Program-made: the position numbers and the translations under genes
Part shown: positions 7,895-30,028 of the stretch, piece by piece
How positions within the stretch are numbered: position 1 is the first letter of the stretch
Layout: every line of letters begins with the position of its first letter
Assembly: GCA_019429125.1 (NCBI GenBank)
Contig: JAHYJO010000007.1
Span: 1-58,755, forward strand
Direction of reading: 5' to 3'
DNA from: Nanobdellati archaeon
GTDB taxonomy: Archaea > EX4484-52 > GLR71
Length of the DNA stretch: 58,755 nucleotides
The notes under the pieces: model-generated
Told to the model about the DNA's origin: nothing
Seen by the model: the letters and a program-made list of their open reading frames with translations, nothing else
The model's database searches: none

Positions 7895-8508
7895 TTAAAA
7901 ATCCCACAGACCTATTCTTACCCAAGCGACAGAAGTACTTCTACAAGTACCAGTAGGATCTGTTGTACATCCGGAATTCCAACATTTTTTAGCAACAACC
8001 ACATCTCCTGGATTCAGATATTGATTTACCCTAAAACCTGTAATATTAAGTCGTATGTCATTAACATAATATTCCATATGATCTGTGCAATAACGCATTC
8101 CAAAAGGACCTTCAACAGTACCCATATAACCACCATTTGGACCAACAGTATGAGAACCAATAATAATACTATTAGACCTACCATCCGCCCACTCAAATCT
8201 TTTTGAAACCCAAACTGCAGTTCCTGTAATACCACCACCAGCATTATCTGCACTAGTCAGTACAGTTCCATCAGGAAATACTATTCCATTATCAGAACCA
8301 GTTATTGAGATGTTTCCAGAATTTATGATTTTGTTTGTATTCATGTCACAAGGTCAGAATCAATATAAAGCTCGGATAGCGGATGACCTACAAGAGGCAT
8401 GGTGGTTGTGGCGAATATGTTACTTATTGCTAAAATCATGAAAGGAAGCGCTACAATTATTCCTGCCATCAAGAAATGTTTCTTTTCAAAGGTGATTGTG
8501 ACTGCCAT
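7895..8508 (-). pseudogene. Split membrane-anchored fibre-like protein (EKKHF family): 8341-8508 anchor ORF plus 7895-8344 C-terminal ORF
   Basis: The upstream ORF is MAVTITFEKKHFLMAGIIVALPFMILAISNIFATTTMPLVGHPLSELYIDSDLVT*. Removing a duplicated TG joins it in frame to MNTNKII...GIVFPDGTVLTSA... Confidence 0.65.
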
Positions 8509-8572
8509 AGTATAATATTATTTTTAGTAGTATATAAATTAAATTAGTCATAGACCATATTTACTCTTATTA

Positions 8573-9067
8573 CCTAACTTTGACATTTATGACTTTTTTG
8601 TTTTTTTTTGCGTTTTTTTAATACCTACATTTGACAGATATTAGTATGTTAATTGATTGCGTTTTTTATCTTTTTTCACCTATTTTTTAATACCCTATTT
8701 GACAGTTTGTATTCAGAAATCAAAATATAGTATTATGGTTTGATCTATATTGAAATTCAGATTTAATCTAGAATAAAAATTAAGAAAATTCACCAAAATT
8801 AGCCAAATAAATTTGACAGTTAGGCTAAAATTTACAAAAATCATGAAACAAATAGACATTTAACCTTATTTTTCTCCAGAAATTAACTTATTTTTAGTCA
8901 AAAATCAAGAAATTTTTAAGTCTTTTGTGGATTTCAAGCTTTTTTATTGCGGTCAATACAATAAAAAATCAAGAAATTACATGAAAAAATGAAGTAAATG
9001 TACTAAAAATAGTCAACTGTCAAATAGATATTCTGAATGAAATAGTTAACAAACTGTCAAACTTGGG
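8573..9067. mobile_element. MITE family B (IS1634-like ends) with 6-bp target-site duplication
   Basis: TIRs CCTAACTTTGACA / TGTCAAACTTGGG. TTATTA is duplicated at 8567-8572 and 9068-9073, and internal TTTGACAG motifs are present. The family assignment is tentative. Confidence 0.75.
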
Positions 9068-9070
9068 TTA

Positions 9071-9997
9071 TTATCTTGAAAGCAGAACTACTCGGCTTGG
9101 AACTGACTCATTTGTGAGTTCATAGGACAACTCGCCCTTTAGCTTTTCTGAGAAATCGCGCACTTCTGAATGTAGTGGCATGGCATCTCGAGACAACCGG
9201 TATTTTGAGTAGCCGATGTTCATGTAAGCCTTGACTTCTACGAAATCTGGATTAATCATCTCAATTATCTTTGCATACTCTTTTATGTGGGACATGTTCA
9301 TGCCTTTGATAAGAGTCAATCTTACCGCTTTTCGTGAGGTGAATGATGACATCAAGTCCACAGTCTTTGTGAAACGTTCCCAGTAATCTTTGAATATGGG
9401 CGCGTCTATCTTTTTGTACATCTCTTTTGTGGGAGCGTCAACTGACAGATATAATTGGTATGGTTTCTCTATGTTTTCCAGACGGTCGGGGAACTGGCCG
9501 TTTGTGACTAGAAATGTGGTCATATTCTTTCTGTTGCACAGGTCTATGAAATCACTTATCAAGGGATAAGCTGTCGGTTCACCAGTCAATGATATTGCAA
9601 TTTGGTTGGGATTTTGTGCCTCTTTCCATTTTTTCTGGTCGGTGCCGTCAAAACCTTTGAAACCGGTAAGAAGATTTCTCTGTGCAACTATTGAGGCTTC
9701 AAGAATTATCTCCGGCGTGTCGACTGGACCTGTCAATTCTGGACCTTGAGTCTTCTCTATTGCGCGCCAACAGAATATGCACCTGTTTGGGCACCATGAA
9801 ACAGCAGGTGTCATCTGAAGACATCTGTGGCATTTGATGCCGTAAAATTTTTCCTTGTAGCAGACACCTTCACCCCTCAAGCTTTTCTTTGTCCAAGTGC
9901 AAAGTTTCACTGCTGAATGGTTGCCAGCGATCCGGTACTGCTGTTTCTCAAGGATAGCTTTTACATTTTCAAGAAGCATAGGTATCACTTTATCCAT
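9071..9997 (-). CDS. taw1: 4-demethylwyosine synthase (radical SAM)
   Basis: HSAVKLC.WTK, CYKEKFYGI, CPNRCIFCWR, ISLTGEPT and SRVVLL. Confidence 0.95.
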   Translation of the reverse strand: MDKVIPMLLENVKAILEKQQYRIAGNHSAVKLCTWTKKSLRGEGVCYKEKFYGIKCHRCLQMTPAVSWCPNRCIFCWRAIEKTQGPELTGPVDTPEIILEASIVAQRNLLTGFKGFDGTDQKKWKEAQNPNQIAISLTGEPTAYPLISDFIDLCNRKNMTTFLVTNGQFPDRLENIEKPYQLYLSVDAPTKEMYKKIDAPIFKDYWERFTKTVDLMSSFTSRKAVRLTLIKGMNMSHIKEYAKIIEMINPDFVEVKAYMNIGYSKYRLSRDAMPLHSEVRDFSEKLKGELSYELTNESVPSRVVLLSR

Positions 9998-10003
9998 TTT
10001 GTT

Positions 10004-10915
10004 CTATTTTATTTCAAACTCTAAAGAATCGTAAGCCAGAATCGTGTTCTTAAATACTTTTTGAGCCTCATCAAGAAGCATTTGGGGTGATGTGTTTTCT
10101 TTTTTATCCTGGTATCTTCGGCTTATATGAGTTAAGACAAGAAGTTTGACATTCGCCTTTTTTGCGACTGTTGCTGCTTCCTCAGCTGTTGAATGGCCAA
10201 TCTTATCTACACCATCTTTGTCTGAGCCAAATGTTGAGTCGTGTATCAGAAGATCTGCATGTTTTGCATGTTTTATTGTATTTACATCATATTTTGTGTC
10301 CCCTGTATATACTATTTTTCTTCCAGGAATGTGTTCAATCACATCTTCAGGTTTTATTGTTTTTCCTTTGAATTCAATTGTCTTTCCAGCTTTTAGTTTT
10401 CCTATGTAAGGACCGGTTGACAGACCTAACTTTTCGGCTTTTTCCATGTTTGCGCGAATTCTTGGGTCTTCTTCAAGAACGTATCCTAAGGCGGGTATCT
10501 TGTGTGTTACTTTAAATGCTGTTACTTTATAGCCCTCGCCTTCTACTGTGAAACCGTCATTCATCTCAGTTATATTAATCTTAAAGTTCCTGCCAAAATA
10601 CCCGATTGTCAGAAGCTGTTCTAAAAATTCAGTTGTCCTTTTCGGTCCGTAGACGTTTAAGGGTTCTGTTCGCCCTTCAAGAGACATTGTCTGGATAAGA
10701 CCTAATATGCCACCGAAATGGTCTGCGTGCCAATGGGTTATGAATATGCGGTCTATCTTCATGAATTTAAGGCCTTGAACCATTAACTGGCGCTGAGTAC
10801 CTTCACCGCAATCAAATAGTATGCGCTCACCCTTAAACATGACAAATATTGATGGCAGGTTGCGCTCTCTTGTCGGAACACTTGCTGTTGTTCCCAGGAA
10901 TTTGACTTTAATCAT
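10004..10915 (-). CDS. rnz: Ribonuclease Z
   Basis: LGT...PT.ERN, DCGEGTQRQ, THWHADH, YTGDT and LTHISRRY. Confidence 0.96.
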   Translation of the reverse strand: MIKVKFLGTTASVPTRERNLPSIFVMFKGERILFDCGEGTQRQLMVQGLKFMKIDRIFITHWHADHFGGILGLIQTMSLEGRTEPLNVYGPKRTTEFLEQLLTIGYFGRNFKINITEMNDGFTVEGEGYKVTAFKVTHKIPALGYVLEEDPRIRANMEKAEKLGLSTGPYIGKLKAGKTIEFKGKTIKPEDVIEHIPGRKIVYTGDTKYDVNTIKHAKHADLLIHDSTFGSDKDGVDKIGHSTAEEAATVAKKANVKLLVLTHISRRYQDKKENTSPQMLLDEAQKVFKNTILAYDSLEFEIK

Positions 10916-11003
10916 AGTTTCAGTTTGGGAATTAAGCTTTTTAAAGATTTAAAGTTAATACATATTTATTAATACTACCTAATTGTAACAAACTAGTGAT
11001 ATT

Positions 11004-11462
11004 ATGAGACTTGAAGACCAAATGGCAATTGAACAACCTTATTTTGTAATCAGTGAATTAATAGAATATTACGATGAAAAAAAAGGATGTTTAGGCAAGA
11101 TATATTTTGAAGACAGACTGCTCTTCCATATAAGCGATAAAGAAGATGTTACTGCAAAAGATTTCAAACCAACATCAAAGAAATATTTTATAGGAGTCTT
11201 AAGACGTGAAAAAATGGATAAAACACGTAGTATCATAGAAGAATCTGTATACCTTAGCAAACCATATTATGATTTATGTCAAATCAAAGATTCACCAGAA
11301 GACAATGCACTCATTGAACTTATCAAAGATAATTTTAGTAATCTTCCACTTAATCAATATAAAATTATAAAAGATGACATTAAGCTTGAAAATTGGTGGA
11401 ACTATCTAAATAAGATAAAAAGAACAAGTAAATCTCAAAAAAATAATGGTGTCCTCAGATAA
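11004..11462 (+). CDS. Hypothetical protein (orphan)
   Basis: 152-aa ORF with GTGAT SD; no motif recognised. Confidence 0.6.
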   Translation: MRLEDQMAIEQPYFVISELIEYYDEKKGCLGKIYFEDRLLFHISDKEDVTAKDFKPTSKKYFIGVLRREKMDKTRSIIEESVYLSKPYYDLCQIKDSPEDNALIELIKDNFSNLPLNQYKIIKDDIKLENWWNYLNKIKRTSKSQKNNGVLR

Positions 11463-11585
11463 AATAAAATGTGAATAATACTTATTATTTTCTTCAAGTA
11501 ATAAGACTTATTCTGTTTTCAGATAATAAGCCCAATTAGGACTGCGTCGTATAGATAAATTAAGTCATAAGATAAATTACATCAT

Positions 11586-12155
11586 TTACGGCCTTATTCT
11601 TGTAATCACATAATAAGTTACGTCTGCTTCTTCGTCAACTACTGCAAGGAGCGCTTTCGCCCTTATGTTCTGACTCAACCTGACGTATCTTGACCATTCT
11701 TGATATGAGTGCGCGTAATTCTCAGGAACTGCATGAACATTGTATTTTGTGTGTTCCTTAAGTTCTTTTGATCCACCCTTATATGGATTTACGCCACGGT
11801 TGTAGACTCGGAAATGGGTTCCGAACTTGAAACCAGATTTGACTATAAAGCCACGGTTCCTTAAATCTCGGTATACTGTATATTTCTGTGAGAATTCAGG
11901 GTCTAATGTAGAACATAAACTGTAGAAAGTCTTGACTGTCATTGGTTTCTTTTTATCAAGAACTTTTATATGACCACGCTCTAAAAGAATCATGCCCTCT
12001 TCAAGACTTAACTGAAGATATGAAATCTTCTCCTCTTCGATGTATTTTCCGAAAAATTTCTCGTCAAATATCTTTTTCTGCTCTTCTATGTCCCATACTG
12101 CAAGTTTGTTGTTTAATAGTTCTGCAGTGGCCATAACATCGCTGTTATTGTCCAT
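11586..12155 (-). CDS. endA: tRNA-intron endonuclease
   Basis: LSLEE, VYRDLRNRG, KSGFKFGTHFRVY and VRLSQNIRAK. Confidence 0.93.
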   Translation of the reverse strand: MDNNSDVMATAELLNNKLAVWDIEEQKKIFDEKFFGKYIEEEKISYLQLSLEEGMILLERGHIKVLDKKKPMTVKTFYSLCSTLDPEFSQKYTVYRDLRNRGFIVKSGFKFGTHFRVYNRGVNPYKGGSKELKEHTKYNVHAVPENYAHSYQEWSRYVRLSQNIRAKALLAVVDEEADVTYYVITRIRP

Positions 12156-12179
12156 CTCTGCTTACCTCCATGTTTTAAG

Positions 12180-12253
12180 TGGGAAGGATGTGATTTGAAC
12201 ACACGACAACTAGATCTTCAGTCTAGCGCTCTCCCAGGCTGAGCTACCTTCCC
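12180..12253 (-). tRNA. tRNA-Phe(GAA)
   Basis: Reverse complement GGGAAGGTAGCTCAGCCTGGGAGAGCGCTAGACTGAAGATCTAGTTGTCGTGTGTTCAAATCACATCCTTCCCA forms a cloverleaf with anticodon GAA. Confidence 0.95.
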
Positions 12254-12270
12254 ATGATAAATATAAAGAG

Positions 12271-12343
12271 CGCCCCGGGCAGGACTCGAACCTACGACCT
12301 TGTGATTAACAGTCACACGCTCTACCTACTAAGCTACCGAGGC
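12271..12343 (-). tRNA. tRNA-Asn(GTT)
   Basis: Reverse complement GCCTCGGTAGCTTAGTAGGTAGAGCGTGTGACTGTTAATCACAAGGTCGTAGGTTCGAGTCCTGCCCGGGGCG has anticodon GTT. Confidence 0.95.
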
Positions 12344-12436
12344 AAATTGATGTTACTTTAAGTAATAGTTAAAGTTATATCAAAAATTTTAAAAAGGTAT
12401 TGTATCATTTTCAATATCTATACCCTAGAAAATGTT

Positions 12437-13012
12437 TCAGATTGAAAATAGACGATATTTAGTCAAGGATTCAAGAACGGGGACTATCTCTTTTGGAAGT
12501 TTAGAAAAATATAAACCATAATTTCTTTTATTACTTATTATCTTATCCATAACATTATTATCAAATATGATTATTCCAATATCACCTATATCTTTTCTGT
12601 TTTTTATCTCGAAAAGTTTTGGAAATATCATATGATAACCTTTTATGTTCTTTCTTTTTTGATTATATAAGATTGTATTCTCTGATTCGTCTATGATTCT
12701 TTCAATAGCTGTTATGTTATGTTTTTTCTCTAAGAGGTCATGTAAATCTTTTAGTGTGTTATCTTTATCGAAGGTACATATATAATTTATATTATTATGC
12801 CTATGATGTATGTTGAATGACGAAATATAAGACAGGTTGCCCAAAGGTACAAATGATATCATATCTTTGAATGACTCTTTTGTATCTGGATCAGCATATA
12901 ATGCAACATATATATCTGACAACATAGAAAATATTGATTCCATCATAGTGGACAGAGAATGATTCTTGCCATCTCTTATTAAAACCAAATCTTTAGCATA
13001 AATTTCTGACAT
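12437..13012 (-). CDS. Hypothetical protein (orphan)
   Basis: 191-aa AT-rich ORF with GTGAT SD. Confidence 0.6.
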   Translation of the reverse strand: MSEIYAKDLVLIRDGKNHSLSTMMESIFSMLSDIYVALYADPDTKESFKDMISFVPLGNLSYISSFNIHHRHNNINYICTFDKDNTLKDLHDLLEKKHNITAIERIIDESENTILYNQKRKNIKGYHMIFPKLFEIKNRKDIGDIGIIIFDNNVMDKIISNKRNYGLYFSKLPKEIVPVLESLTKYRLFSI

Positions 13013-13155
13013 AATATCACATAAATCTTAATTTTTATTTTAACAGATACAATAAATAGAACTATATAGCATAAATAGATTTATTTTTTTGTGAATGCTG
13101 ATTAAGATAAATATAGAAATCATAACAATATTTTTATCAAAATCAAACCTTAAAA

Positions 13156-14253
13156 TCAATCTAAGAACTCTTTTCTTGCAATCTTTCCAGGCAGGTACTC
13201 TTTTGCGACAAACTCAAGACTCTTTGAAGCCAGTGCTTGCTGTTCTATCCTTGTACCTTTGTTGAGCATGCTTTTTAGTTCTTTTCGCCAGTGCAACTTT
13301 TGGAACCATTCGTAGTTTAAAAGCTGGTTGACACGTTTCTTGTCGACATCTTTTAATTGTTCTGTTACTTTCTCTAGGCCGAAAGTGTCAATGTCGGCCA
13401 TTGTCATGCCAATGAATCTGCATTCGGGTGTTGCAAGGCGTTTTGATTCGTGTGCCAAGTTCATGGAACCCGTCTTTACAACTGAATAAATGTAGTAACC
13501 CCAGGGGTCACCGTCTGTGAATACGTATACAGGAAGTTTTAGGCGCTCGTTTAAAAGCTTTATCAGACGCCTTGCACCTCTTGCAGCCTGACCACCAAGA
13601 CCTATTAAGATTGCGTTGTTTTCAATATGATATTTTTCTTCTACAAGACGGTCAACCATAGCTTTTGTCTCAACCACCAAGACATATTTAGCTTTACATT
13701 CTATGAATTTGTAGTCGTCAACAATTGAGGGTATGGCAAGACCTGATTTTCCTAATTTTGAACAGTCAATCCTGTCGCCTGTGTCCTCAATCACAATTTG
13801 TCCAAAAAGTATTCCGCTGCTGTCTGCTTTTAGGTGAAGCTCTTCCCTCAATGAATCTGTCATTGTTTCAAGGTCTTCAATCAACGGGTCGGATTCTTCC
13901 TGACCTTCAAAAGTGTTCTCTTTTGTGCCAGGGATGTTGTGCTTGAGCTCATAATAAAGTTCTCTTATGCTTGCAGTCTTTCCTTTATCTATAAGTTCTT
14001 TGCATTTGGATGCAATAATCATGGTCTGCATGAATTTTCTTGTGTGGGCAAAATTGAGGAAATTTCTTTCAGACATACTATTTCCTAGATACAGGAGACC
14101 TTTGTCTTTATCATAATGGACATTTGAGGATGCACGGACAGGAAGAGCTACCGATGGCGCATTACCTGCAAATATATCTGCGACTACTTTTTTGCCTAGG
14201 TTCTTTATCTTTTCTGCAACTATCGGGTCACTTTCAAATTTCATAATAATCAC
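13156..14253 (-). CDS. top6A: DNA topoisomerase VI subunit A (likely start ATG 14244)
   Basis: RELYY (catalytic Tyr), VLVVET, GQAARGARR, TDGDPWG and EQQAL. Confidence 0.96.
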   Translation of the reverse strand: MIIMKFESDPIVAEKIKNLGKKVVADIFAGNAPSVALPVRASSNVHYDKDKGLLYLGNSMSERNFLNFAHTRKFMQTMIIASKCKELIDKGKTASIRELYYELKHNIPGTKENTFEGQEESDPLIEDLETMTDSLREELHLKADSSGILFGQIVIEDTGDRIDCSKLGKSGLAIPSIVDDYKFIECKAKYVLVVETKAMVDRLVEEKYHIENNAILIGLGGQAARGARRLIKLLNERLKLPVYVFTDGDPWGYYIYSVVKTGSMNLAHESKRLATPECRFIGMTMADIDTFGLEKVTEQLKDVDKKRVNQLLNYEWFQKLHWRKELKSMLNKGTRIEQQALASKSLEFVAKEYLPGKIARKEFLD

Positions 14254-16179
14254 CTATTCAGATGTTTCATCGGTCTCTGTCGCGTTTTTGGTTCTGTCAC
14301 TGTTGAATATGTCCAATCGCGATTGAGGGTTATCTTTTGCTGTACTTAACTGTTTTTTGTCTGATTTTGTGACAGTTGTATCATTAACACTTTTTATATT
14401 GAAAATATTAGATATTGGTTTGGTATGTATGTCAGTATTGTTATCATTGTCAACATTGTTATCATTGTCACTATTGTTATCATTGTCACTATTGTTATCA
14501 TTGTCAACATTGTTATCATTGTCAACATTGTTATCATTGTCACTATTGTTATCATTGTCACTATTGTTATCATGATTATTACTGAGATTATAATTATCAT
14601 TATTATTGGTCTGTATTTCCATACCTTTACCGTGTAAGACAATTGATGTGTCACCTATTTTATCGGCAACCACTTGTTTTAGGCTGGTCTGTATCTTTTG
14701 GGCATCAATGCCTGTCAGGTCGGAAAGCGCTATGCAAAGTTCGCCTGCATAGATGTCAAACGCGCGCAGACGCTCTTCTGCCTCTTTGCTTTTGTGTTTT
14801 TTTGAAATATAAATACTTAGCTTCCTTGCGGCACCTTGCAAGGCTAAAGTCACTTCTTTTAATATCTCAGGATATGCTGCTATCGCTTCTTTTCCCTCAG
14901 ATGTATATGGTACCCAGACGGATGCCATGTGGACTGTCACTGCAACAGGACCTAAAGGTATGGAACCAGTGCTCTGTTTAAGACCATATCGTTTCCAGCC
15001 CAGCTTTATGACTGATTTTGCAATTACACAAGATGACTGCTGGTAAAGTAAAGGCACCTTGTTCGCAAAACGCATTATTGATATTGGACCCTCTGCTGAA
15101 AGGTCTCCACCGTACCCGATACCTACCTCAATCTGGAACGGATAACCTTTATAGACTGTAGGCGGTCGGCTCATGACTGCAATGAACTCTGGGTTCATCT
15201 CTTTTTTCAGACCTTTCTTTATTGCATCTTCACCGACCGGTGAAAGGCAGTCTGTCGGTGGTTTTGCTATCTTTGCAGTATTTAATGCATCTAGAAGTTT
15301 TTCTATGTCATCTCTTGAAAGCCGTTTAGGATTTGTCTTAGGATTAATCTTTGCACGGTTGCATATGTCGACTGCATTGCCCCGTCCTACCCTTGACAAT
15401 TCCGTTGTGAAAAAGGCTGTCAGGTTCTTTGATTCTGTCTGTTTCATAAGACGCATTAGGATGCCAAGCTCAAGACCGTGCGGATGTGGCTGTATTGACT
15501 CTGCGGCTTTTGGAAGTATGTCTACTGCTCGCGGATATTCTAACTGTTTACCTTCGGGATTTATGTAGACTATATTTGCAAAAGGGTTCATTATGGCTGT
15601 CTCCATAAGGTATCCCTCAACGGATTGCTTGCCTCTTATGTATTTCCCTTTTAGGTATAGCTCAATCCGTGTGCCGTGACCGTCACCATCAACTGTCATT
15701 TCTGATATTATGTCTGGCTCGTTTTTCTTTATGTTTATATTGAGCTCGTAGATGTGTGTGTTGCCATCACCTATCTTTGAATATATCTTTGTCGGCTTTC
15801 CGGTAGTAAGCTGAGAATAAAGAACTGATGCTGAAATGCCTATACCTTGCTGACCTCGAGATTGTTTTAGGTTGAATTTTGAACCGTAAAGAAGTTTTGC
15901 GAATATGTTTGGTATGTTTTGCTTTACAATACCTGGACCGTTGTCTTCAATTATGAGTTTGAAATGAGTAGGGTCTAATTGATTGAGCTCAATGTATATG
16001 GTTGGGAGTATGCGCGCATCTTCGCAGGCATCAAGTGAATTATCAACTGCTTCCCTTACACAGGTCAACAGTGATTTCTGGTCATTCTCAAAACCTAATA
16101 AGTGTTTGTTCCTCTCAAAAAATTCTGCAACTGATATCGACTTGTGATCCTTTGCATTTTCTTCTGCTATTGTTGCCAT
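14254..16179 (-). CDS. top6B: DNA topoisomerase VI subunit B with Asn/Asp-rich C-terminal extension
   Basis: GHKL motifs EAVDNSLDA, EDNGPGI and SRGQQGIGIS; RFANKVPL. Confidence 0.96.
   Translation of the reverse strand: MATIAEENAKDHKSISVAEFFERNKHLLGFENDQKSLLTCVREAVDNSLDACEDARILPTIYIELNQLDPTHFKLIIEDNGPGIVKQNIPNIFAKLLYGSKFNLKQSRGQQGIGISASVLYSQLTTGKPTKIYSKIGDGNTHIYELNINIKKNEPDIISEMTVDGDGHGTRIELYLKGKYIRGKQSVEGYLMETAIMNPFANIVYINPEGKQLEYPRAVDILPKAAESIQPHPHGLELGILMRLMKQTESKNLTAFFTTELSRVGRGNAVDICNRAKINPKTNPKRLSRDDIEKLLDALNTAKIAKPPTDCLSPVGEDAIKKGLKKEMNPEFIAVMSRPPTVYKGYPFQIEVGIGYGGDLSAEGPISIMRFANKVPLLYQQSSCVIAKSVIKLGWKRYGLKQSTGSIPLGPVAVTVHMASVWVPYTSEGKEAIAAYPEILKEVTLALQGAARKLSIYISKKHKSKEAEERLRAFDIYAGELCIALSDLTGIDAQKIQTSLKQVVADKIGDTSIVLHGKGMEIQTNNNDNYNLSNNHDNNSDNDNNSDNDNNVDNDNNVDNDNNSDNDNNSDNDNNVDNDNNTDIHTKPISNIFNIKSVNDTTVTKSDKKQLSTAKDNPQSRLDIFNSDRTKNATETDETSE
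14431..14574. repeat. 8 x 18-bp coding tandem repeat (GTCAMYATTGTTATCATT) encoding NDNN(S/V)D
   Basis: Counted directly in the sequence. Confidence 0.92.
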
Positions 16180-22268: not shown

Positions 22269-22943
22269 TTATGTGAATATTTGCTGGAGCTCTGATAGGT
22301 CATCAATTATATGATTACAATATTGAACAATATCTATTCCTTTGTTGTAGGTAGTTCTTAACAGTATAAAACTCATGCCAGCATCCTTTGCTGCAAGAAA
22401 GTCATTTAAACTGTCACACACCACTATACATTTATTTGGGATTGTACCTATTGCATCTGAGGCTTTCATAAAGGTTTCAGGATTGGGTTTTGGACTTGAG
22501 ATGTCATCAGATGTTATTATTGCGTCAAGGAGGTCTTGTATTCCTTTAGGAACCACATTGTCTGTACCTGTTCTTGACGCACCTGTGAAAATTGCGATAT
22601 TGTAACCTTTTTTCTTTAGTTTTGAGATTCAAGCGGTTGAATCTTTTGGGAAGCAGTCTTTCTTGTTTTTTAGGATTTCTGAAAACTTTTTGTTGAACTC
22701 GTCTTTTAGGTACTCTTTTTTTGAAGGGTCATACGCTCCTTCTTTTTTCAGGAAATGTGTATATATTACTTCGGCGGGTTTGCCTCTAAAGCGCATGATA
22801 TCTTTGGGGGTTAGATTTATTGAGACACCAAATAATTATAATATGTTATTTATTACTTTTATGTATGTTGATATCGAATCTAATAAGGTCCCATCAAGAT
22901 CAAATATTATAATCTTTATGTTTTTTTTATTGAAAAGTTGCAT
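22269..22943 (-). pseudogene. HAD-family phosphatase pseudogene
   Basis: MQLFNKKNIKIIIFDLDGTLLDS...; two in-frame stops (TAA, TGA) precede the KPNPE and VVCDS motifs. Confidence 0.82.
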
Positions 22944-23019
22944 GTATTGATTTGTGCTATGTGGATTTAAATAAGTGTATAAAACCTATGAGAGTAGAAT
23001 AAATATGAAAATTAAAAAA

Positions 23020-23577
23020 TCAATCTTTTAGGACTTCATACAGTTCCTTATTAAGGACTATCTTGTTTATCTTTCCTAGTCGCACCTTATGGATTATTTT
23101 CTTTTGTTCAAGATTTAATAAAATCCTGTGTGTCTTTAACTTGTTCAGGTTCGGCAGGTGGGACAATTCATATTGTGGGACTTTGCCATTGTTCTCAAGG
23201 AGTGTCTCAATCACATTCTTTTCAGGACCTGTCAAAAAATTAAGGATTATTTTTGAATTAATTTTTAATGTGTGCTCTTGTCGCACCACTTTATCTGACA
23301 TTATATAATATACTAAAGTGCCTATCAAAAGACCGATAAAACCCATAAATGGCAAAAGGTAATAACTGCGGAATACTGGTTGTTTCAATCGTTGTGCGAT
23401 GATTGATTGTTTGATTTCGTCTATTGTCATGTTATCTATCTGATTAGGATCTAATCGTGATTGCTCCCGTAGGTCATGCTGGAAATTGAAATAGATGCTG
23501 ACTGACATCATCAATAATGCAAATGAGACAATTATCCCAATACCTATGATTAATTTTGGGTTATCCGTTCTGACCAT
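23020..23577 (-). CDS. Membrane-anchored winged-helix transcriptional regulator
   Basis: Two TM helices plus C-terminal LTGPEKNVIETL..NNG..Q.EL...KTHRIL.NLEQK.II.K...GK.N. Confidence 0.75.
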   Translation of the reverse strand: MVRTDNPKLIIGIGIIVSFALLMMSVSIYFNFQHDLREQSRLDPNQIDNMTIDEIKQSIIAQRLKQPVFRSYYLLPFMGFIGLLIGTLVYYIMSDKVVRQEHTLKINSKIILNFLTGPEKNVIETLLENNGKVPQYELSHLPNLNKLKTHRILLNLEQKKIIHKVRLGKINKIVLNKELYEVLKD

Positions 23578-23639
23578 AGAGTATGTAAGTATTGCTAGAT
23601 ATATAAATAGTATGCGTATTTTTTCTTATTTTTTCAATA

Positions 23640-23657
23640 GTTTCATAATAATGAAAC
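23640..23657. promoter_or_regulatory. Palindrome GTTTCAT-aata-ATGAAAC, candidate operator
   Basis: Lies in the divergent intergenic region. TAGTTTCA half-sites recur at about 23679 and 23701. Confidence 0.55.
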
Positions 23658-23756
23658 ACAATTTCAACTATAGATTGATAGTTTCAGAAAGTATTATGTA
23701 TAGTTTCAACCATAGGACGTGTATAGGTCAAAACAAAAGTTTACCTAGTAGGAACA

Positions 23757-24242
23757 ATGGAGGTAATTAAAATGAATAAAGTAGCAAAAATAATTTTGTT
23801 TGCACTTATAGTTGTTGGACTAATCGTTTCAACAGGTGTAGCGAGCCCTTACAAAGGAGACTATTCAGTACAAGATCCAAACTATAGTGAGGACAGACAT
23901 GAATTGATGCAGGATGCATTTGATACATTAAACTATGATGCATGGTACCAATTGATGACTGCTGACGGAAGGACTCCGCGAGTTGCAGAAGTTGTGACTG
24001 AAAGCAATTTTGAATTGTTTGTACAAGCACATGAAGCAGCTGAGAACGGAAATATGAAACTTGTAGCTGAACTAAGGGCAGAACTTGGACTAAATAATGG
24101 CATATGTCTGCGAGATGGAAATGACCATAGTAAAGGGTTTGGACAAGGAAATGGACAAAAGATGTCACAGAATAATTTCATAGACAATGACAACGATGGA
24201 AACTGCGATAACTTAGGAACAAACTCTAGAAGGGGAAGGTAA
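23757..24242 (+). CDS. Secreted protein with C-terminal DxDxDG-type motif (likely start 23772)
   Basis: Signal peptide, Gly-rich tail and FIDNDNDGNCD. Confidence 0.72.
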   Translation: MEVIKMNKVAKIILFALIVVGLIVSTGVASPYKGDYSVQDPNYSEDRHELMQDAFDTLNYDAWYQLMTADGRTPRVAEVVTESNFELFVQAHEAAENGNMKLVAELRAELGLNNGICLRDGNDHSKGFGQGNGQKMSQNNFIDNDNDGNCDNLGTNSRRGR

Positions 24243-24264
24243 TTACCTTTCCTTCTTATTTTTT
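24228..24264 (+). terminator. Hairpin plus T-tract
   Basis: AGAAGGGGAAGGT-aatt-ACCTTTCCTTCT followed by TATTTTTT. Confidence 0.6.
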
Positions 24265-24281
24265 AAAGCGAGGTACGCGGA

Positions 24282-24485
24282 ATGTTTTATAGATATGGAA
24301 TGAGCTATATGATTGGGTCACAGGTATTGTTTTTTGTAATCACAATAGCCTTAATTATATGGATATTAAAAGACTCAAAGCAAGACAAAAGTGATACTGT
24401 AAAAGATATACTTGACAGACGCTTGGCATCTGGAGACATTGATAAGAAAGAATATACACAATTATTGGAGACTATTAAATTATAG
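24282..24485 (+). CDS. SHOCT-domain membrane protein
   Basis: TM helix plus ILDRRLASGDIDKKEY. Confidence 0.8.
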   Translation: MFYRYGMSYMIGSQVLFFVITIALIIWILKDSKQDKSDTVKDILDRRLASGDIDKKEYTQLLETIKL

Positions 24486-25346
24486 AATCTTTATCTTTCC
24501 AGCTCTTGGCTCGTAGCAGGTGCCCTCACTCAACAGCTCATTTATCACAGCTTCTGAATCTTTTGAGGAACCATTAACTGAATCTATGACATCGTCAATT
24601 GCTGCGCCATCGCCCTCGTCAAGTGTTTCTATAATATCTAGCATGCATACCCGTAATGATTTTTCTTTCTTTTCAGGAATTTTTTTGGACTCAAGTTCTG
24701 GAATGTCTGTTGTTTTTTTAGCTGGAGATTTTTTAGAGACTATCGTTTTTTCGATATGCGTAGATAATATCTCTTTGACGTTCTCAGATTTGGGCACATT
24801 TACGTTGGTTTTTATCATGATTTTTTGATTTATATCATCATCTTCAACTGAGGATACTACTTGATTAGACTCAGAATTTAAAGATTTTTTTATTAGGGTT
24901 ATCTCTTTCTGAACTGTATCTTTGTCAAGGATGCCTTCTTCTTTTTTAAAACTTAATATCTCAAGACTGCGGAGGGTCTTTATATCAGGATTGTCTATTA
25001 TGCGCAAGACTTCAGGGACAAGATAGACCTCGCCGTTCCACTCACGTACCAAGGCAATTATATCTACTAAATCCTCATTTTTTGTGTCAAGTACCATCTT
25101 TATGTTCTGCCAGGCTTTTACCCGTATTGTACCGGTATCGTCGTCAAGAGTTATTGACGCATAGTTTCCGTCGGCAGATGCATACATGAATGTTACGCGC
25201 GCAAGAAGTCGCACCCTATAAACTTTTATTTTTCCGCCAAGGTCAAGATAATTAGTTAACTTGCCAGTATCGTCTTTGATGTAGGTATTTTCAGTCAAGT
25301 CTGAAATATTTAGTTTGTATGCGGCTTGCGTTTTTAAATTGACCAT
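24480..25346 (-). CDS. RPA2-like OB-fold/wHTH single-stranded DNA-binding subunit
   Basis: RVRL...LDDDTGTIRVKAW and C-terminal EGTCYEPRAG; downstream of mcm. Confidence 0.85.
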   Translation of the reverse strand: MVNLKTQAAYKLNISDLTENTYIKDDTGKLTNYLDLGGKIKVYRVRLLARVTFMYASADGNYASITLDDDTGTIRVKAWQNIKMVLDTKNEDLVDIIALVREWNGEVYLVPEVLRIIDNPDIKTLRSLEILSFKKEEGILDKDTVQKEITLIKKSLNSESNQVVSSVEDDDINQKIMIKTNVNVPKSENVKEILSTHIEKTIVSKKSPAKKTTDIPELESKKIPEKKEKSLRVCMLDIIETLDEGDGAAIDDVIDSVNGSSKDSEAVINELLSEGTCYEPRAGKIKIL

Positions 25347-25349
25347 AAT

Positions 25350-27371
25350 CTATACCTTCTTTATATAACCGTGTTTTGGTTCGAAAAGTTCACCATCGCG
25401 CTTAAGAGACTCTATCACTTCTTCAACTTTTGCAGAATCCATACCTTCTTCCTCTGCGCGAGTTATAAGATCTTCACGGTTGACTATCTTATCGGGACTT
25501 TCTTCCTGCATAATTTTTATCAATCTCAATACTTCCATTATCTTGTTTCTCTTGCTTGAGCCTACGCCGGAACTTAACCTGTCAATATCAATCTGGCCTG
25601 TCTCAGGGTCAATGCCTACCTGCTTAAGGCAGAATGTCAGAAGCTCAATTGCACGGTCAGCATCTTCTTTTTTGACAGTGTCTGAAAGACGTATCTTTGC
25701 ACTTGCCTCAGCAATCCTAACAAGAGCTTCAAGCTGCCTTGCAGTCAATGGAATTGGTGCTTTCTCATCATCAGGGTTCTGGTTTCTTATGTTCACATAA
25801 AACTCTTTTATTGCATCCATTGCAGGTTTTGTCAATTTAGGTGCACAGTTTGACCTTGCATAAGCAATGTATTTCCTTAACATTTCTGCATTAATCGGAG
25901 TGTCTTCTGTTTCGGGGTTCTCATGAAGTGTCAATATGTGCTGAGCTAGATGTGTATCTTTTTCCCTGTTTGGCACATCCCTAATCGGGAAGATGAAATC
26001 AAAACGACTTATCAGTGTGTCGGGCAGATTTATCTGGTCAGGAATTGATGTGTAAGGATCAAAACGGCCGTATTTTGGATTTGCAGCTGCAAGGATTATG
26101 GTTCTTGCACTTAAAGTTGCCTGGATGCTTGCCTTACTGACTGTAACCGTCTGTTGCTCCATGACCTCATGCATCGCACTTCGATCTGTGGCATCCATCT
26201 TGTCCATCTCATCAATTGCGCACATGCCGCCGTTTGCAAGGACCAGTGCACCTGCCTCAAGTGCCCAAGTTCCTGTGAATTCGTCTTTTACAGCGGCAGC
26301 TGTCAGACCTGCACCAGATGATGATTTCCCTACGACATATCTGCCTTTTGGAGCTAGCATGGAAACATATTTTAACATCTGTGACTTTGCTGCACCAGGG
26401 TCACCAATTAAAAGTATGTGGATGTCGCCTCTCGTCTTCATGCCATCAGCCCTTATCTTCTGGACACCACTGAATAGCTGGATAGCTATTGCAAGTTTGA
26501 TATTTTCATAACCGAAAATAGATGGAGCTATGGACTTTGTTAGCATCTCGTAGACATCTTTGTTGCTTGCAATCTCTTTTATCTTTTTTTCGTCGTCTTC
26601 ACTGATTTCTATGTCTTCAAACTCTTTCTCTATCGGCTCAAGGTAATTGCAGTCTATGTATATGTCTCGTCTTTTCGTTTCCTTGCCACGATCGACCTTT
26701 ATCGGCATGTCATTTAAGATGCCAGTCACACAGACCTTGTTTCCTGGAACCACCTTTCTCTGGAATGTGGGATCTACAAGATCGCTTTTTAAGTATACCC
26801 CGAGCTTTCTTGCCTGCTGGCCACCATCAAGAGATTCAGGGCTTTCTTCCACAACTATGCGCTGAACATCTATCATCTTGCGGTTTATTAACTGGAACCC
26901 GCGCTTGTTGCCACACTCGCACATGTAAGGTTTTTCAAGAGTCTCCTCGTCCTGGAGCATTGCTATCTTCTCACCGCAGGACTGGCATTCCCAGGTTGCG
27001 AATGTTATCTCCGGACGAACTTCACTTGCTTGCTTTATAAGACCTTCAATACCTATGAATTTTGAAAGGTGATAACTTCTTAGGTTCTTTATAGGTATCT
27101 TTTCAGTATTGGGGACATTCATTATCCTTAGGGGCACTTTCTTGTCCAGTTCTTCAGAACCGAGATCTATGTTTGACATGGCCTCTTCTGCTGCCTGAAG
27201 ACATTCTTCTGGATGCTCAAGAAAATGATCGAAGAGTTCAGGATCAAAACGTTCAAGTGTTTCGTAAGGTATTATGAGGGGTTGGGACTCTTGGACAGCT
27301 TTCAAAAGTTGTTTGTAACAGATATCTGTCAGAAATATTTCAAATTTTTTCAATACATCAGAGTAATCCAT
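25350..27371 (-). CDS. mcm: Replicative helicase MCM (no intein)
   Basis: GDPGAAKS, IDEMDKM, AAANPKYGRF, SRFD and ARQLEAL. Confidence 0.97.
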   Translation of the reverse strand: MDYSDVLKKFEIFLTDICYKQLLKAVQESQPLIIPYETLERFDPELFDHFLEHPEECLQAAEEAMSNIDLGSEELDKKVPLRIMNVPNTEKIPIKNLRSYHLSKFIGIEGLIKQASEVRPEITFATWECQSCGEKIAMLQDEETLEKPYMCECGNKRGFQLINRKMIDVQRIVVEESPESLDGGQQARKLGVYLKSDLVDPTFQRKVVPGNKVCVTGILNDMPIKVDRGKETKRRDIYIDCNYLEPIEKEFEDIEISEDDEKKIKEIASNKDVYEMLTKSIAPSIFGYENIKLAIAIQLFSGVQKIRADGMKTRGDIHILLIGDPGAAKSQMLKYVSMLAPKGRYVVGKSSSGAGLTAAAVKDEFTGTWALEAGALVLANGGMCAIDEMDKMDATDRSAMHEVMEQQTVTVSKASIQATLSARTIILAAANPKYGRFDPYTSIPDQINLPDTLISRFDFIFPIRDVPNREKDTHLAQHILTLHENPETEDTPINAEMLRKYIAYARSNCAPKLTKPAMDAIKEFYVNIRNQNPDDEKAPIPLTARQLEALVRIAEASAKIRLSDTVKKEDADRAIELLTFCLKQVGIDPETGQIDIDRLSSGVGSSKRNKIMEVLRLIKIMQEESPDKIVNREDLITRAEEEGMDSAKVEEVIESLKRDGELFEPKHGYIKKV

Positions 27372-27477
27372 AGGAATTAATAATTATGTCGATTAATTTA
27401 ATAAGTCTTGTTAATGTCTAAGGTAGTAAAAATAAAGAAAAGATGAAACATGTTAAATTATTCAACCAGTTTGGCAT

Positions 27478-28083
27478 CTAAAATTTAACATCAAGTGATT
27501 CATCTTCAATTACTTCAATAGGATTTAGGTCAATGTCTATACCTGTTAAATTTTCTCTTAGCTTGATTACGCTTTCCTCAATCATCTCGTGGCTTTTTGC
27601 ACCTGTGCAAATGACTTTTCCTGACTTGAAAAGAAGGAAGACCACTTTAGGTAAATCTAGACGATATACAAGACCTGGGAACTGTTCAGGTTCATATTCT
27701 GTGCCTTCAAGATCAAATGCTATCTTATTTAAGTTCAGCTCGGTCGAGAAAAATGTTGATGCGACCATGTTCTGGATAGTTAAGTCGTTTACTGCGGTCA
27801 CTTCAGGGTCAATTGCTTGTATGTCTTTCAAGAGGTTTGCAACAGCTTCATGAGCTTGCTCAACTGATTTTGTTCCTGTACAGACAATCTTTCCAGAATT
27901 AAATATTAGTGCTGCTGCTTTTGGATTCTCTAACCGATATACAAGACCTGGAAACTGTTCCGGTTCGTACTCAGTCCGTTTAAGACCGACAGAAAGACGA
28001 GTCAATGGGACTTTTTTATCAAATGCACCAGATGCAACAACATTGTGAACTTTTATGTTTTTAGGCATATTATATTCCTCCAA
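27478..28083 (-). CDS. tbp: TATA-box binding protein (likely start ATG 28068)
   Basis: Two repeats of NVVAS/NMVAS ... YEPEQFPGLVYR ... F.SGK..CTG. Confidence 0.97.
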   Translation of the reverse strand: MEEYNMPKNIKVHNVVASGAFDKKVPLTRLSVGLKRTEYEPEQFPGLVYRLENPKAAALIFNSGKIVCTGTKSVEQAHEAVANLLKDIQAIDPEVTAVNDLTIQNMVASTFFSTELNLNKIAFDLEGTEYEPEQFPGLVYRLDLPKVVFLLFKSGKVICTGAKSHEMIEESVIKLRENLTGIDIDLNPIEVIEDESLDVKF

Positions 28084-28348
28084 AGAGCAGATTCAATCCC
28101 CCGAAAAAATCTGCAGTTTTACCTCAAAAAATCCAATGCTGTAGTATGTAAGTATATAAAGGTTTTTTATTTTAATTGTACGGAAATGTTTATAAACTTA
28201 TGGTGCCTAAGGATTGCATACACGTTAGTGATAAAATATATAATTTTATGATCTTTTCAGGAGTTATGACATTGATAATTATATAGAATTTAAAATAAAT
28301 TGATGCAAAGTATAAAACATATAAGAGTCAATTATTGCAAGTGATTAC

Positions 28349-28885
28349 ATGGCAAATATAGAAGTTGAATCCCGGGCATTTCTTTCTGAAGATGAGTATG
28401 CGCGCCTTATTAATTTTATGGAATCGAATGCAGAACGCGTAAAAGATGACGAACAATCGACATTTTATTTGTCTGGTGAAAATGATGTGCGCCTGCAAAA
28501 AAATAGTTCCGGCGCAAAGATTATACTCAAAGGCGGAAAGATACATGATGATTACAGAGAAGAAATTGAAGTAAAATTTCGGAAAGAAGATTTTGATAAT
28601 ATGGTGTCTATTTTATGTGCTGCAGAATTAGAAATTGAAATTAAGTGGTTTCGGAAGCGAAAAGAGTTTATATGGAAAAATACGAAGGTTTGCATTGACA
28701 GGACTAAAGGATATGGAGATATCATAGAGATTGAGATATTGTGCGGTGAAGATGAGGTGGAAGATGCGCGAAAAAAGATTTCTGAGGTTATGAGCGAGTT
28801 GGAAGTTGCGCAGACACCAAGGTATGTATTTGAGGAAAGATTCAATTATTATAAGAACAATTGGAGACGACTTGTTGGAGATTGA
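28349..28885 (+). CDS. CYTH-domain protein
   Basis: IEVES, REEIEV, RKR and GDIIEIE. Confidence 0.85.
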   Translation: MANIEVESRAFLSEDEYARLINFMESNAERVKDDEQSTFYLSGENDVRLQKNSSGAKIILKGGKIHDDYREEIEVKFRKEDFDNMVSILCAAELEIEIKWFRKRKEFIWKNTKVCIDRTKGYGDIIEIEILCGEDEVEDARKKISEVMSELEVAQTPRYVFEERFNYYKNNWRRLVGD

Positions 28886-29060
28886 AGGATAACTACTCAG
28901 ATATATACATAGATTTATATAGTTTAAATACTATATATTATAGTCTCTATTTTTAGTTGTTTTATTTTAAGAGTATGCGTTGTGCTTTTTCTTTTGTAGA
29001 TAAGTTCACCCTAAACAGGCTTAAATGCGCACAACAACAAAATCCTGGAGAGAGATTGAT

Positions 29061-29204
29061 ATGAATGAAAAACAAATACACTTTATGAAAAATATGGCAA
29101 TGCAAAGTGGTAATGCACGGGAGCTCATGAGGCTTTCAAAGATAATGAGGCTTCACGGGTTTGGTAATATAGAGTCTGATGTGGATAAAATCACATCATT
29201 TTAG
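29061..29204 (+). CDS. Small hypothetical protein, 47 aa
   Basis: SD GGAGAG precedes MNEKQIHFMKNMAMQSGNARELMRLSKIMRLHGFGNIESDVDKITSF*. Confidence 0.5.
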   Translation: MNEKQIHFMKNMAMQSGNARELMRLSKIMRLHGFGNIESDVDKITSF

Positions 29205-29231
29205 TTCTTTTTAATTGGAACTTATATTTAA

Positions 29232-29399
29232 GGCACTGTCCAAAAAGTGAGGGATTTTGAATATTTTTTAAATATTGTTTGTTTATAAACTCCTGCAGAA
29301 ATCCATTCAATATAGACATTTCACGCCGAATTAAAAAAGAAATGAAGGTATTTAATTAACTACATTTTGTTTGAAAACACTCCAAAAATTAACTGTGCC
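29232..29399 (-). mobile_element. MITE family A, complete copy (GGCACWGT termini)
   Basis: Ends are GGCACTGT and ACTGTGCC; homologous in inverse orientation to 1269-1397. Confidence 0.75.
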
Positions 29400-29444
29400 T
29401 ACCTTAATATAGATATATATAGCAGAAAGTCACAAATAAACAAT

Positions 29445-30028
29445 ATGAGAATAAATCTCAATATTGAAAAGAAACATTTTATTGTAATTTCTGTTTTTCT
29501 AGGACTATTGTCCTTTCACTTGCGACAGATATGATAATTGCTGCAGTAGTGCCTGTTGTTGGGGGTGCTTGGCATCTGTTGTCCGGGATATCAGGAGATG
29601 GAGGTGTGACTTCAATCGATAATGGTAGCGGATATATTGGGGCTGATGTTATTGAAGGTGGTGGCTCAAGTGGAAGTCTTCCTACGGGCGCAATAGTCAT
29701 GTGGTCTGGAAGTCTTGCAACAATCCCTTCGGGCTGGACACTCTGTAATGGTGCTGGTGGGACACCTAATCTGACATCAAGGTTTGTTAGAGGAGTGGCT
29801 GACGGTGTTGAACCTGGTGCTACAGGTGGAGAAGATGAACATGTGTTGACTATTGCTGAGATGCCGAGTCATTCACACGGAACAAGCAATAATGCACTAT
29901 CTGGAAGTATCTCTGGACAAGGCGGGTTTAGTTCACAAATTATAGGATATACAGCATCAACAGGAGGTAGTCAACCTCACAACAACATGCCCGCGTATTA
30001 TGAGGTTGCATTCATCTGTAAGACATAA
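29445..30028 (+). pseudogene. Split membrane-anchored protein (EKKHF family) with phage tail-collar domain: 29445-29534 plus 29531-30028
   Basis: MRINLNIEKKHFIVISVFLG[frameshift]IVLSLATDMIIAAVVP..AWHLLSGI... continues into PTGAIVMWSG..IPSGWTLCNG..GTPNLTSRFVRG...LTIAEMPSHSH...PHNNMPAYY..AFICK (tail collar). Confidence 0.75.

Follow-up and report, generated by a model that had tools for sequence, protein, structure and literature searches.

Candidate surface adhesins of a DPANN archaeon: a family of small phage-fibre-like proteins with a conserved N terminus and exchanged heads, frame-broken in two of three copies

How DPANN archaea recognize and attach to their partners is largely unknown, and few candidate recognition molecules are at hand. 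Two loci in a 58,755-nt stretch of contig JAHYJO010000007.1 (GCA_019429125.1; hereafter, the window), which belongs to the genome of a Nanobdellati archaeon designated here G000, raise the question of whether such cells display phage-fibre-like proteins of their own. An earlier sequence-only reading had taken locus 1, on the minus strand, and locus 2, on the plus strand, for members of a dispersed, modular, and cell-encoded family of anchored fibres that reuses viral receptor-binding heads. Our analysis identified them as type-A and type-B members, respectively, of one lineage-restricted archaeal superfamily, and the explanation that fits the evidence best, which we hold with fair rather than high confidence, is that its products are adhesin-like trimeric fibres, encoded by the cell and anchored at the N terminus, whose heads recombine. 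The proposed architecture, i.e., a hydrophobic helix, a His motif, and a Gly-rich segment followed by unrelated C termini, was evident at both loci. However, each corresponding protein results only from reading through a frame break, one at each locus, as specified in the following features.

Locus 1, positions 8531..8538, minus strand: TATA-box-like TTTATATA, about 25-30 nt before the ATG (read from the sequence).
Locus 1, positions 8341..8508, minus strand: N-module, type A, with the leader MAVTITFEKKH, the hydrophobic helix F12-A33, and the GHPLSEL motif.
Locus 1, positions 8347..8350, minus strand: frame break; TG is duplicated (+2 insertion), giving GACCTTGTGACATG versus GACCT--TGACATG in four relatives.
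Locus 1, positions 7895..8344, minus strand: stalk and head, with the stalk repeats NTNKIINSGNISITGSDNGIVFPDGTVLTSA, an all-beta head of ~110 aa containing four Cys, and the end GLWDF.
Locus 2, positions 29413..29421, plus strand: TATA-box-like ATATATATA, about 25-30 nt before the ATG.
Locus 2, positions 29445..29534, plus strand: start of the N-module, type B, with the leader MRINLNIEKKH and the first part of the helix, then out of frame to a TGA.
Locus 2, positions 29506..29507, plus strand: frame break; one base is missing (GGACT-ATTG versus GGACT[C/G]ATTG in four relatives).
Locus 2, positions 29531..30028, plus strand: remainder of the gene, with the rest of the helix, WHLLSGI, the Gly-rich linker IDNGSGYIGADVIEGGG, a tail-collar-type head, and an HSH motif.

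Each gene is thus laid out in two open reading frames (ORFs). At locus 1, a 55-aa N-module ORF (MAVTITFEKKHFLMAGIIVALPFMILAISNIFATTTMPLVGHPLSELYIDSDLVT), which begins with MAVTITFEKKHF and terminates at the TGA made by the frameshift, is followed in a different frame by a 149-aa ORF that reads MNTNKIINSGNISITGSDNGIVFPDGT, with GIVFPDGT and then a Cys-containing beta domain. At locus 2, the first ORF (29 aa; MRINLNIEKKHFIVISVFLG) begins with MRINLNIEKKHF, and the downstream ORF (165 aa) carries AAVVPVVGGAWHLLSGISGDGG, the AWHLLSGI region. The locus 1 N-module matched profile A1, an alignment of 12 type-A N-modules, with 104 bits (E = 3.4e-30). It is also 70% identical over 53 aa to a third, intact paralogue of 274 aa (G000:C26:18655-19476, starting MAVTITFEKKHFLIAGLIIAIPFLLIAISNIFAATTMPAVGHSISELFVNDDFDLNGNKIIGSGNITITGSGNGIIFSDNTIQTSA), which was recovered by a genome-wide six-frame ORF scan and shows the form that locus 1 had before the break. 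Profile A2, built from six type-B sequences, matched the first ORF of locus 2 over positions 1-25 (E = 2.3e-7) and the downstream ORF over positions 17-79 (E = 1.6e-27). The same profile matched type-A genes as well, including locus 1 of the window at E = 2.1e-5, and comparison of the two N-module types with hhalign aligned the EKKHF leader, the helix, and the H-P-[IL]-S motif over 62 columns (probability 96.4%, E = 1.3e-9). The hhalign result and the A2 cross-matches exclude chance likeness of the two N termini, and the shared N terminus claimed for the two loci is therefore genuine: both carry [EQ]-K-[KR]-H-[FA], a Pro-Phe helix, and either G-H-x-x-S-E-L (type A) or W-H-P-L-S-G-I (type B).

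Conservation of this module is pronounced. The 12 type-A sequences have in common M1, T4, T6, F7, K9, K10, H11, F12, L13, G16, P22, and F23, besides A33, G41, H42, E46, and L47. Copies differ synonymously in the GAA-AAG-AAA-CAT-TTC codons, which indicates that the constraint acts on the protein. In the 20 members examined, the leader has a net charge of +1 to +3, the hydrophobic segment extends over 21-23 residues, and the best 19-residue Kyte-Doolittle window scores 2.1-2.8 without exception.

Profile searches were run against a panel of 42 genomes, identical for the order- and phylum-level searches (G-numbers denote genomes and P-numbers family members). Profile A1 found matches in 7 of the 42 genomes, distributed over 2 of 13 genera, and profile A2 in 12 genomes of 5 genera, including longer and more distant members in G011, G016, and G021 with the leaders MQIVINIEKKHA, INISITISRRHFF, and INIDIKKSHA. 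Used as a query against G000 and 40 relatives, the intact paralogue matched 8 of these 41 genomes, several with multiple matches, which invariably spanned its residues 1 to ~88 only, in ORFs of 170-245 aa. The family is rare: among 1,835,955,588 representative proteins, 44 matched profile A1 at E <= 1e-3 and 27 at E <= 1e-10. Members are mostly 160-250 aa long, reaching ~460 aa, and those with a name in public records are listed as 'hypothetical protein' in metagenome-assembled genomes titled Nanohaloarchaea or Aenigmarchaeota archaeon. Genome G000 itself has three loci, of which only the one outside the window is intact; together with the multiple copies in relatives, this bears out the dispersed family, and the further paralogues, that the sequence-only reading had anticipated.

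The family belongs to none of the families tested. No scanned member was covered by Pfam, NCBIfam, or PHROG entries apart from the locus 2 head, the Peptidase_S74 tail of P0014, and weak tail-fibre PHROG rows for P0023 (best E = 2.9e-6); NCBIfam gave no meaningful match for the seven members scanned. A PDB profile search with the N-module returned nothing significant (best E = 0.05), and an ESM Atlas look-up with the intact paralogue provided no lead (best score 0.77). The titles and abstracts of the literature found, supplements being outside that search, held no published description of the family.

Are these genes cellular or viral? All three G000 copies occupy conserved housekeeping slots. 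Locus 1 lies between the aTrm56 gene and a TYW1-like gene, and family genes sit in this same slot in G006, G007 (two tandem copies), G003, and G038, the last of which belongs to another family within the order. Genes for CYTH and an amidohydrolase flank locus 2, as they do its counterparts in G003, G006, and G007 (again two tandem copies), and the C26 copy follows HIT and PUA genes and precedes the class I LysRS gene, likewise in G006 and G007. A TATA-like box ~25-30 nt before the ATG was observed in the 13 family genes compared, and locus 1 probably has its own promoter and a short leader or none, judging by this spacing. The rest of the window is ordinary archaeal chromosome, with genes for ArgRS, aTrm56, TYW1-like, RNase Z, tRNA splicing endonuclease, Topo VI A/B, RIO1, NMD3, aIF2-beta, MCM, TBP, FEN1, and pyruvate:ferredoxin oxidoreductase. 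In agreement with the earlier claim, we found no capsid, terminase, or integrase family among 56 window ORFs (Pfam) or 19 ORFs (PHROGs), and the only mobile-element gene of the window was a DUF772/IS-type transposase gene (50143-50904, plus strand; PHROG transposase, E = 2.8e-40). The 30 neighbours at the G000:C26, G033, G038, G006, and G007 loci were housekeeping genes only, and a scan of 2.9 million viral contigs with the N-module yielded 0 relatives among 25 pattern matches. These genes are thus cell-encoded, and homologues are found in housekeeping slots rather than in the viral contigs scanned.

Modularity was equally clear. DNA likeness between paralogues starts ~30 nt upstream of the ATG, continues 250-280 nt into the gene, and then ends. 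Comparison of the window with G003, G006, and G007 at the nucleotide level gave the following identities.

Flanking housekeeping genes: 79-87% nucleotide identity.
N-modules: 77-87% nucleotide identity.
Heads, where homologous (longest aligned stretch): 71-76.5% nucleotide identity; the others are unrelated.

The locus 1 slot holds four different heads in four species. The locus 2 slot is filled by a tandem of a non-collar and a collar gene in G007, by the non-collar form alone in G006, and by the collar form alone in G003 and the window. The G003 gene is 94% identical to the upstream copy of G007 through the promoter and N-module (524 nt) and then continues with the head of the downstream G007 copy (81%), a pattern that fits what would be expected from recombination between tandem N-modules. 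Defining the head as at least 50 residues after the N-module, 8 of 43 non-redundant members were dropped for their shorter heads; 37 heads, those of the window included, fell into 23 classes (BLASTP, E <= 1e-4). Extracellular domains would be expected to contain cysteine, and it occurs in 31 of the 37 heads (12 at most in any one). Further fibre-like proteins, with ordinary signal peptides, are encoded in relatives at L019:1219-2064 (G033:C87) and L018:4739-5710 (G006:C125), where L018 and L019 are stretches of relatives' contigs. Both share the stalk motif NVSGN[IV]S[IV]TG.GNG[IV][IL]FPD, and the collar head of the former is 52% identical to that of locus 2; the same heads are therefore used on more than one type of N terminus. 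The family is thus modular as proposed: one conserved N-module is combined with heads of at least 23 classes, and sister species have different heads in the same slot.

What kind of protein do these modules build? The stalk contains motifs of the types D-[LM]-N-x-N-K-I-x-N and N-G-I-x-F-x-D-G-x-x-Q-x-S-A. GIVFPDGT and the other stalk motifs resemble phage tail-fibre repeats by eye only, GIVFPDGT being like the GIxFxDGTxQ-type repeat of Phage_fiber_2 in Pfam. The Pfam scan of the locus 1 ORFs and the intact paralogue at E <= 1 gave nothing but a chance PLDc match. A clearer signal came from P0014, which ends in a Peptidase_S74 domain (PF13884; 57.6 bits versus a cut-off of 22) and matches tail-fibre PHROGs down to E = 5.6e-29. 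Of the 32 members scanned, P0014 alone has this domain, which is absent from the ORFs of both window loci and from the C26 paralogue. The locus 2 head reached 21.9 bits against Pfam Collar (PF07484), below the cut-off of 24 (E = 1.7e-4, positions 1-21 of 57), and its orthologues scored 19.2-23.0 bits. Residues ~43-164 of the 165-aa ORF matched the tail and tail-fibre PHROGs 5795 (a tail protein), 8469, and 1800 (E = 1.7e-21, 8e-19, and 2.7e-16), and the head also matched the PDB tail fibre 9nxk (E = 1.2e-6), with further matches to 6ov6 and 9qgo; each of these three entries has three chains of the matched sequence.

Heads of the other G000 copies have different affinities. For the locus 1 head, four relatives are known (P0002, P0027, and two G033 loci); Pfam and PHROGs offered no family for it, and a homologue search among proteins returned only the window's own protein. 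The AF2 model of the intact paralogue (pLDDT 80.6) places a helix at residues 6-34 and, beyond a stalk of low confidence, a head (100-274) built from two jelly-roll sandwiches. VIA-align related this head to peptidylglycine hydroxylating monooxygenase (Z 8.5 over 165 residues) and to nucleoplasmin cores (Z ~9 over ~80 residues), values barely above the Z of 8 below which a match may mean a common arrangement only. By sequence, the same head occurs in 57 other proteins, for the most part metagenomic or from Bacteroidota, where what precedes it is an ordinary signal peptide, collagen repeats, or H-type lectin domains. The supposed viral origin of the heads hence holds for some, which are recognizably viral, but not for that of locus 1, which shows no such link, nor for that of the intact paralogue, found mainly in bacterial secreted proteins; the heads were probably drawn from a broad pool of surface and fibre modules that is only partly viral.

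Modelling of the locus 1 stalk-and-head ORF as three copies gave a median ipSAE of 0.51 (0.41, 0.57, and 0.51) versus 0.00 for the best of three controls, on a mark reached by 20 of 30 proteins solved as one-chain pairs and by 1 of 23 single chains, a calibration that is only a rough guide here, where three copies were modelled from a custom 5-row alignment. At least 79% of the contacts were common to the runs, the partner pLDDT was at least 77, and the interface involved mainly residues 4-47, which correspond to the stalk. The predicted assembly is a homotrimer with chains intertwined via the stalk. Stalk repeats, the S74 domain of one member, tail-fibre heads, and a trimer model that passes its controls together support the fibre-like character that had been proposed.

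The reading that we favour assembles these elements as follows. Each member comprises an 11-13-residue leader of alternating hydrophobic and polar residues ending in K-K-H, a ~21-residue hydrophobic helix with the invariant Pro-Phe, the G-H-x-x-S-E-L motif in a putatively membrane-proximal position, and a short stalk of phage-tail-fibre type bearing an interchangeable C-terminal head. The positive leader would remain in the cytoplasm while the helix inserts N-in/C-out via Sec, three chains would intertwine by the stalk, and the trimer would display its head at the cell surface, where it may recognize a polymer or a ligand carried by another cell. Recombination within the N-module, whose conservation equals that of the flanking housekeeping genes, would create new specificities, and heads would be replaced or duplicated at fixed chromosomal slots.

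The closest parallel is the MAT superfamily of Bdellovibrio bacteriovorus. It is described (PMC10769870) as 21 cell-encoded trimeric fibres, 13 with S74 and 8 without, that reside on the predator surface and combine an invariant N-terminal domain with variable tips, changed by 'tip swapping'; one member binds prey glycans, and the S74 domain drives fibre trimerization. The conserved N-terminal domain is described there as beta-rich, of ~130 aa, and placed after a signal peptide, and the constructs named reach residues 922-1,151 (PMC10769870). Both families are cell-encoded, multicopy, and phage-fibre-like, with an invariant N-terminal part near the producer surface, varied tips, and members with and without S74, the archaeal family having one S74 member (P0014) among those scanned. 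The present family differs in being archaeal, ~200 aa long (about five times shorter), and equipped with a leader, helix, and His motif in place of the 130-aa domain, for which the only ~55 residues from helix to head leave no room by length; the two are set apart here by description.

Other known systems share single features with the family. The locus 2 block P-x-G-x-I-x-M-W...IP-x-GW-x-LC-NG with its H-x-H motif is like that of phage collar and short tail fibre proteins (PF07484; Gp10_C, PF21939), but it is fused to an N-module that probably inserts into the membrane and is encoded by a chromosomal gene outside any virus. Member P0014 resembles proteins with the endosialidase/tail-spike chaperone (PF13884) in carrying S74 after the shared N-module and stalk. 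Giant multidomain SPEARE proteins of Nanohaloarchaeota are reportedly candidate host-interaction surface proteins; compared by description, both are DPANN surface candidates, and the present family is tiny, trimeric-fibre-like, and multicopy, with swapped heads.

The family may be, by analogy, an archaeal miniature counterpart of the chimeric prey-recognition fibres of Bdellovibrio, which suggests that viral receptor-binding architecture was recruited independently by cells that live on other cells. Modular phage-fibre-like adhesins of cells are already known; this family is unannotated, and its leader is unexplained. Its shared front end and many tips make its members candidate cell-recognition molecules of a tiny symbiont-type archaeon: small, easily expressed proteins with a fixed, putatively anchoring module and at least 23 alternative tips, whose exchange is evidenced between close species (flanking genes ~80-87% identical) at the same chromosomal position.

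Several observations weigh against this reading. Since both window copies are broken, the window encodes no intact member. The AF2 monomer of the locus 1 head, although all-beta, is poor (pLDDT 55.7), and Foldseek found no PDB match to it at E <= 1e-3, the top row being an Agrobacterium phage tail fibre (E = 4.2e-3, TMq 0.37). Besides the roughness of the trimer calibration, fibre-like stalks may pass the trimer test through their likeness to solved fibres. The distribution is patchy within the genus, with A1 matches in 4 of 8 genomes, G000 included, part of which may come from incomplete genomes (68-92% complete). Finally, the hydrophobic segment may be cleaved: it closes with the invariant Ala33, preceded by I/V at -3, as would suit a signal-peptidase site, and in the distant relative P0044 the same HPLSQ motif (SHPLSQ) directly follows an ordinary signal peptide.

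These last two observations underlie the alternative that survives best, an unlikely one in our view though a serious contender, in which the fibre is the same but Sec export removes the hydrophobic segment as a signal peptide. The N terminus of the mature protein would then lie near ATTMPxVGH, and the fibre would either be released or attach by its GHxxSEL end to the S-layer or some other structure of the surface. The ordinary signal peptides of the L019 and L018 proteins, which have the same stalk and collar heads, speak for this possibility as well. However, a core of ~21 residues with the hydrophobicity noted above is long for a signal peptide, the leader and the in-helix Pro-Phe are invariant across two archaeal families, which is unusual for a disposable signal, and in the AF2 model of the intact paralogue residues 6-34 form a single unbroken helix. 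We favour an uncleaved signal anchor (N-in/C-out) because of the length and conservation of the hydrophobic stretch. A Tat signal, which KKHFL/RRHFF might recall, was rejected: TatC (PF00902) was detected in only 1 of the 42 genomes (G038) and not in the 93%-complete G000, whereas the control search was positive in 11 of 14 reference genomes. The lone TatC gene (G038:C137:5901-6584, E = 7.9e-47) may be foreign to its organism, the estimated contamination of G038 being 4%.

A second alternative, likewise unlikely, attributes the frame breaks to errors of assembly or consensus calling, in which case the organism itself would carry both window genes intact. The break positions come from DNA alignment of each locus with four in-frame relatives. 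Each gene has a single lesion and is otherwise open to its natural stop, as an artefact would leave it, and strain variation at these loci can mislead consensus calling. However, neither break lies inside a homopolymer, and all 42 window ORFs with a Pfam match show no sign of splitting, those for proteins of 597-786 aa included, except for a fragment of a HAD-type hydrolase gene. The chance that two random indels in 58.7 kb would both land in these 1.2 kb is ~4e-4. The HAD-type gene (22269-22985, minus strand) is colinear except for two different in-frame stops (TAA, 22836-22838; TGA, 22629-22631), which assemblers do not make; it is probably a decaying pseudogene, and gene decay in G000 thus goes beyond the fibre genes. 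A public DNA run held 6% of the sampled words, and its contigs, 80-95% alike, derive from relatives and leave 8276-8458 uncovered.

The same breaks have intact counterparts elsewhere. An uninterrupted leader-to-head frame, lacking in both window copies, is present in the C26 paralogue and in all tabulated relatives, none of which has an internal stop. Orthologues of locus 1 are full-length in G006 and G033 (203-205 aa), and those of locus 2 are intact in G003, G006, and G007, with syntenic ones of 195-199 aa in G003 and G007. An ATGA stop/start overlap joins the two ORFs at each locus because native Met codons (D-M-N and D-M-I) provide both the downstream ATG and the shifted-frame TGA. Programmed frameshifting as a conserved feature was discarded, the orthologues all being in frame and the two breaks differing in kind and position, as was an alternative genetic code, which is unneeded for indels and for a HAD gene with two different stop codons. 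Given the single lesions, intact relatives, unsplit neighbours, and HAD decay, we read the breaks as real and recent inactivations in a genome that is losing genes; most likely, two of the three G000 copies, each with one recent frameshift, are inactive.

The leader invites a bolder reading, which we regard as speculative and rather improbable: the alternating, beta-strand-like xIxIxF and E-K-K-H plus the Pro-Phe helix would constitute a new archaeal sorting or processing signal reserved for placing virus-like, trimeric recognition fibres on the surface of DPANN-type cells, the fixed slots with their recombining heads a cassette system that decides which partners can be attached to, and the recent knock-outs a trace of changed partner range. 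The leader is of interest in itself because it matches none of the known archaeal signal classes tested, although an ordinary Sec signal could still account for it.

Alternatively, the surface fibres might serve conflict instead of host attachment, as decoys or receptors exploited by viruses or as targeting modules of contact-dependent antagonism, in which case the frameshifts would reflect selection for losing fibres. We consider this improbable. Rapid head turnover, with heads diverging faster than the flanking genes, the knock-out of two of three G000 copies by single lesions in otherwise intact frames, and the stop-free copies of relatives in the match tables would all suit it. However, no toxin, immunity, or defence gene lies beside any copy examined, the losses may be neutral decay like that of the unrelated HAD gene, and adhesion has the same signatures, so that nothing here separates the two functions.

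Equally tied to the leader is the proposal that xIxIxxEKKH followed by F/A is a class-III-like prepilin-type signal cut by an A24 peptidase at the cytoplasmic face, yielding pilus-mounted or pilus-like fibres, which we judge quite improbable. Prepilins have a short charged leader ending in KK-x directly before ~20 hydrophobic residues, and the positive family leader has this layout, as in archaeal type IV pilins (PF07790). Genome G000 has two Peptidase_A24 homologues as well as canonical pilins, and extra A24 copies occur in several genomes of two fibre-rich genera. However, the -1 residue is His (or Tyr), in contrast to Gly/Ala in G000's own pilins (MERKG/VSPLIA), and a fibre stalk with a head replaces the pilin globular domain. 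Five sequences gave no Pilin_N (PF07790) match at E <= 1, and the genome scan with this family matched only two other genes. Two A24 copies occur without a fibre match in G001, G002, G020, and G025, and the G033 fibres occur without an A24 match; A24 copy number had no clear relation to family presence. A trimeric fibre would also be hard to fit with helical pilus packing. The pilin-like genes of G000 are located at C32:28105-28314 and C16:134148-134339 and its A24 genes at C15:25394-25711 and C25:24521-24868; the A24 copies in several genomes of the fibre-rich genera number two to three.

A viral origin of the genes, whether through recent insertion or as spike or fibre genes of archaeal viruses now integrated or degraded, is very improbable: the phage tail-fibre matches of the locus 2 and P0014 heads, the resemblance of the intact paralogue head to predicted cyanophage tail-fibre-like proteins (Foldseek BFVD, E = 4.8e-6 to 1.3e-4, TMq 0.37-0.40), and the often short contigs (2.8-10 kb, as for variable islands) that carry family members in relatives are outweighed by single genes with their own promoters among tRNA-modification, aminoacyl-tRNA synthetase, and metabolic genes, by slots reused across species and even in another family of the order, by the lack of capsid, terminase, integrase, or other virion families nearby, by an N-module with no relative in the viral contigs scanned, and by an N-module divergence equal to that of the flanking housekeeping genes.

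Some further features of the surroundings deserve mention. The transposase gene of the window adjoins a low-GC stretch (48001-50000; 0.288), and a gene for a D12-class N6-adenine DNA methyltransferase (300-1154, minus strand) lies in the lowest-GC part (1-2000; 0.265). Between locus 1 and the TYW1-like gene is a 560-bp AT-rich spacer (8509-9070) with degenerate direct repeats spaced 64-68 nt apart (e.g., 8835/8899/8963 and 8594/8662) and the recurrent motif TTTGACAG. Contigs from the run of a related organism omit exactly one 64-nt unit of this spacer (8899 to 8964), and G006 has a 168-aa ORF with no Pfam match at the corresponding place. A CRISPR-like nature of the repeats was rejected, the copies being only 70-93% alike and irregularly spaced. 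On G000:C26, two ORFs of 562 and 799 aa with no Pfam match at E <= 1e-6 (L001:3832-5517 and 5474-7870, minus strand) sit ~0.7 kb upstream of the HIT-PUA-fibre cluster, and ORFs of like size are similarly placed in G006 and G007.

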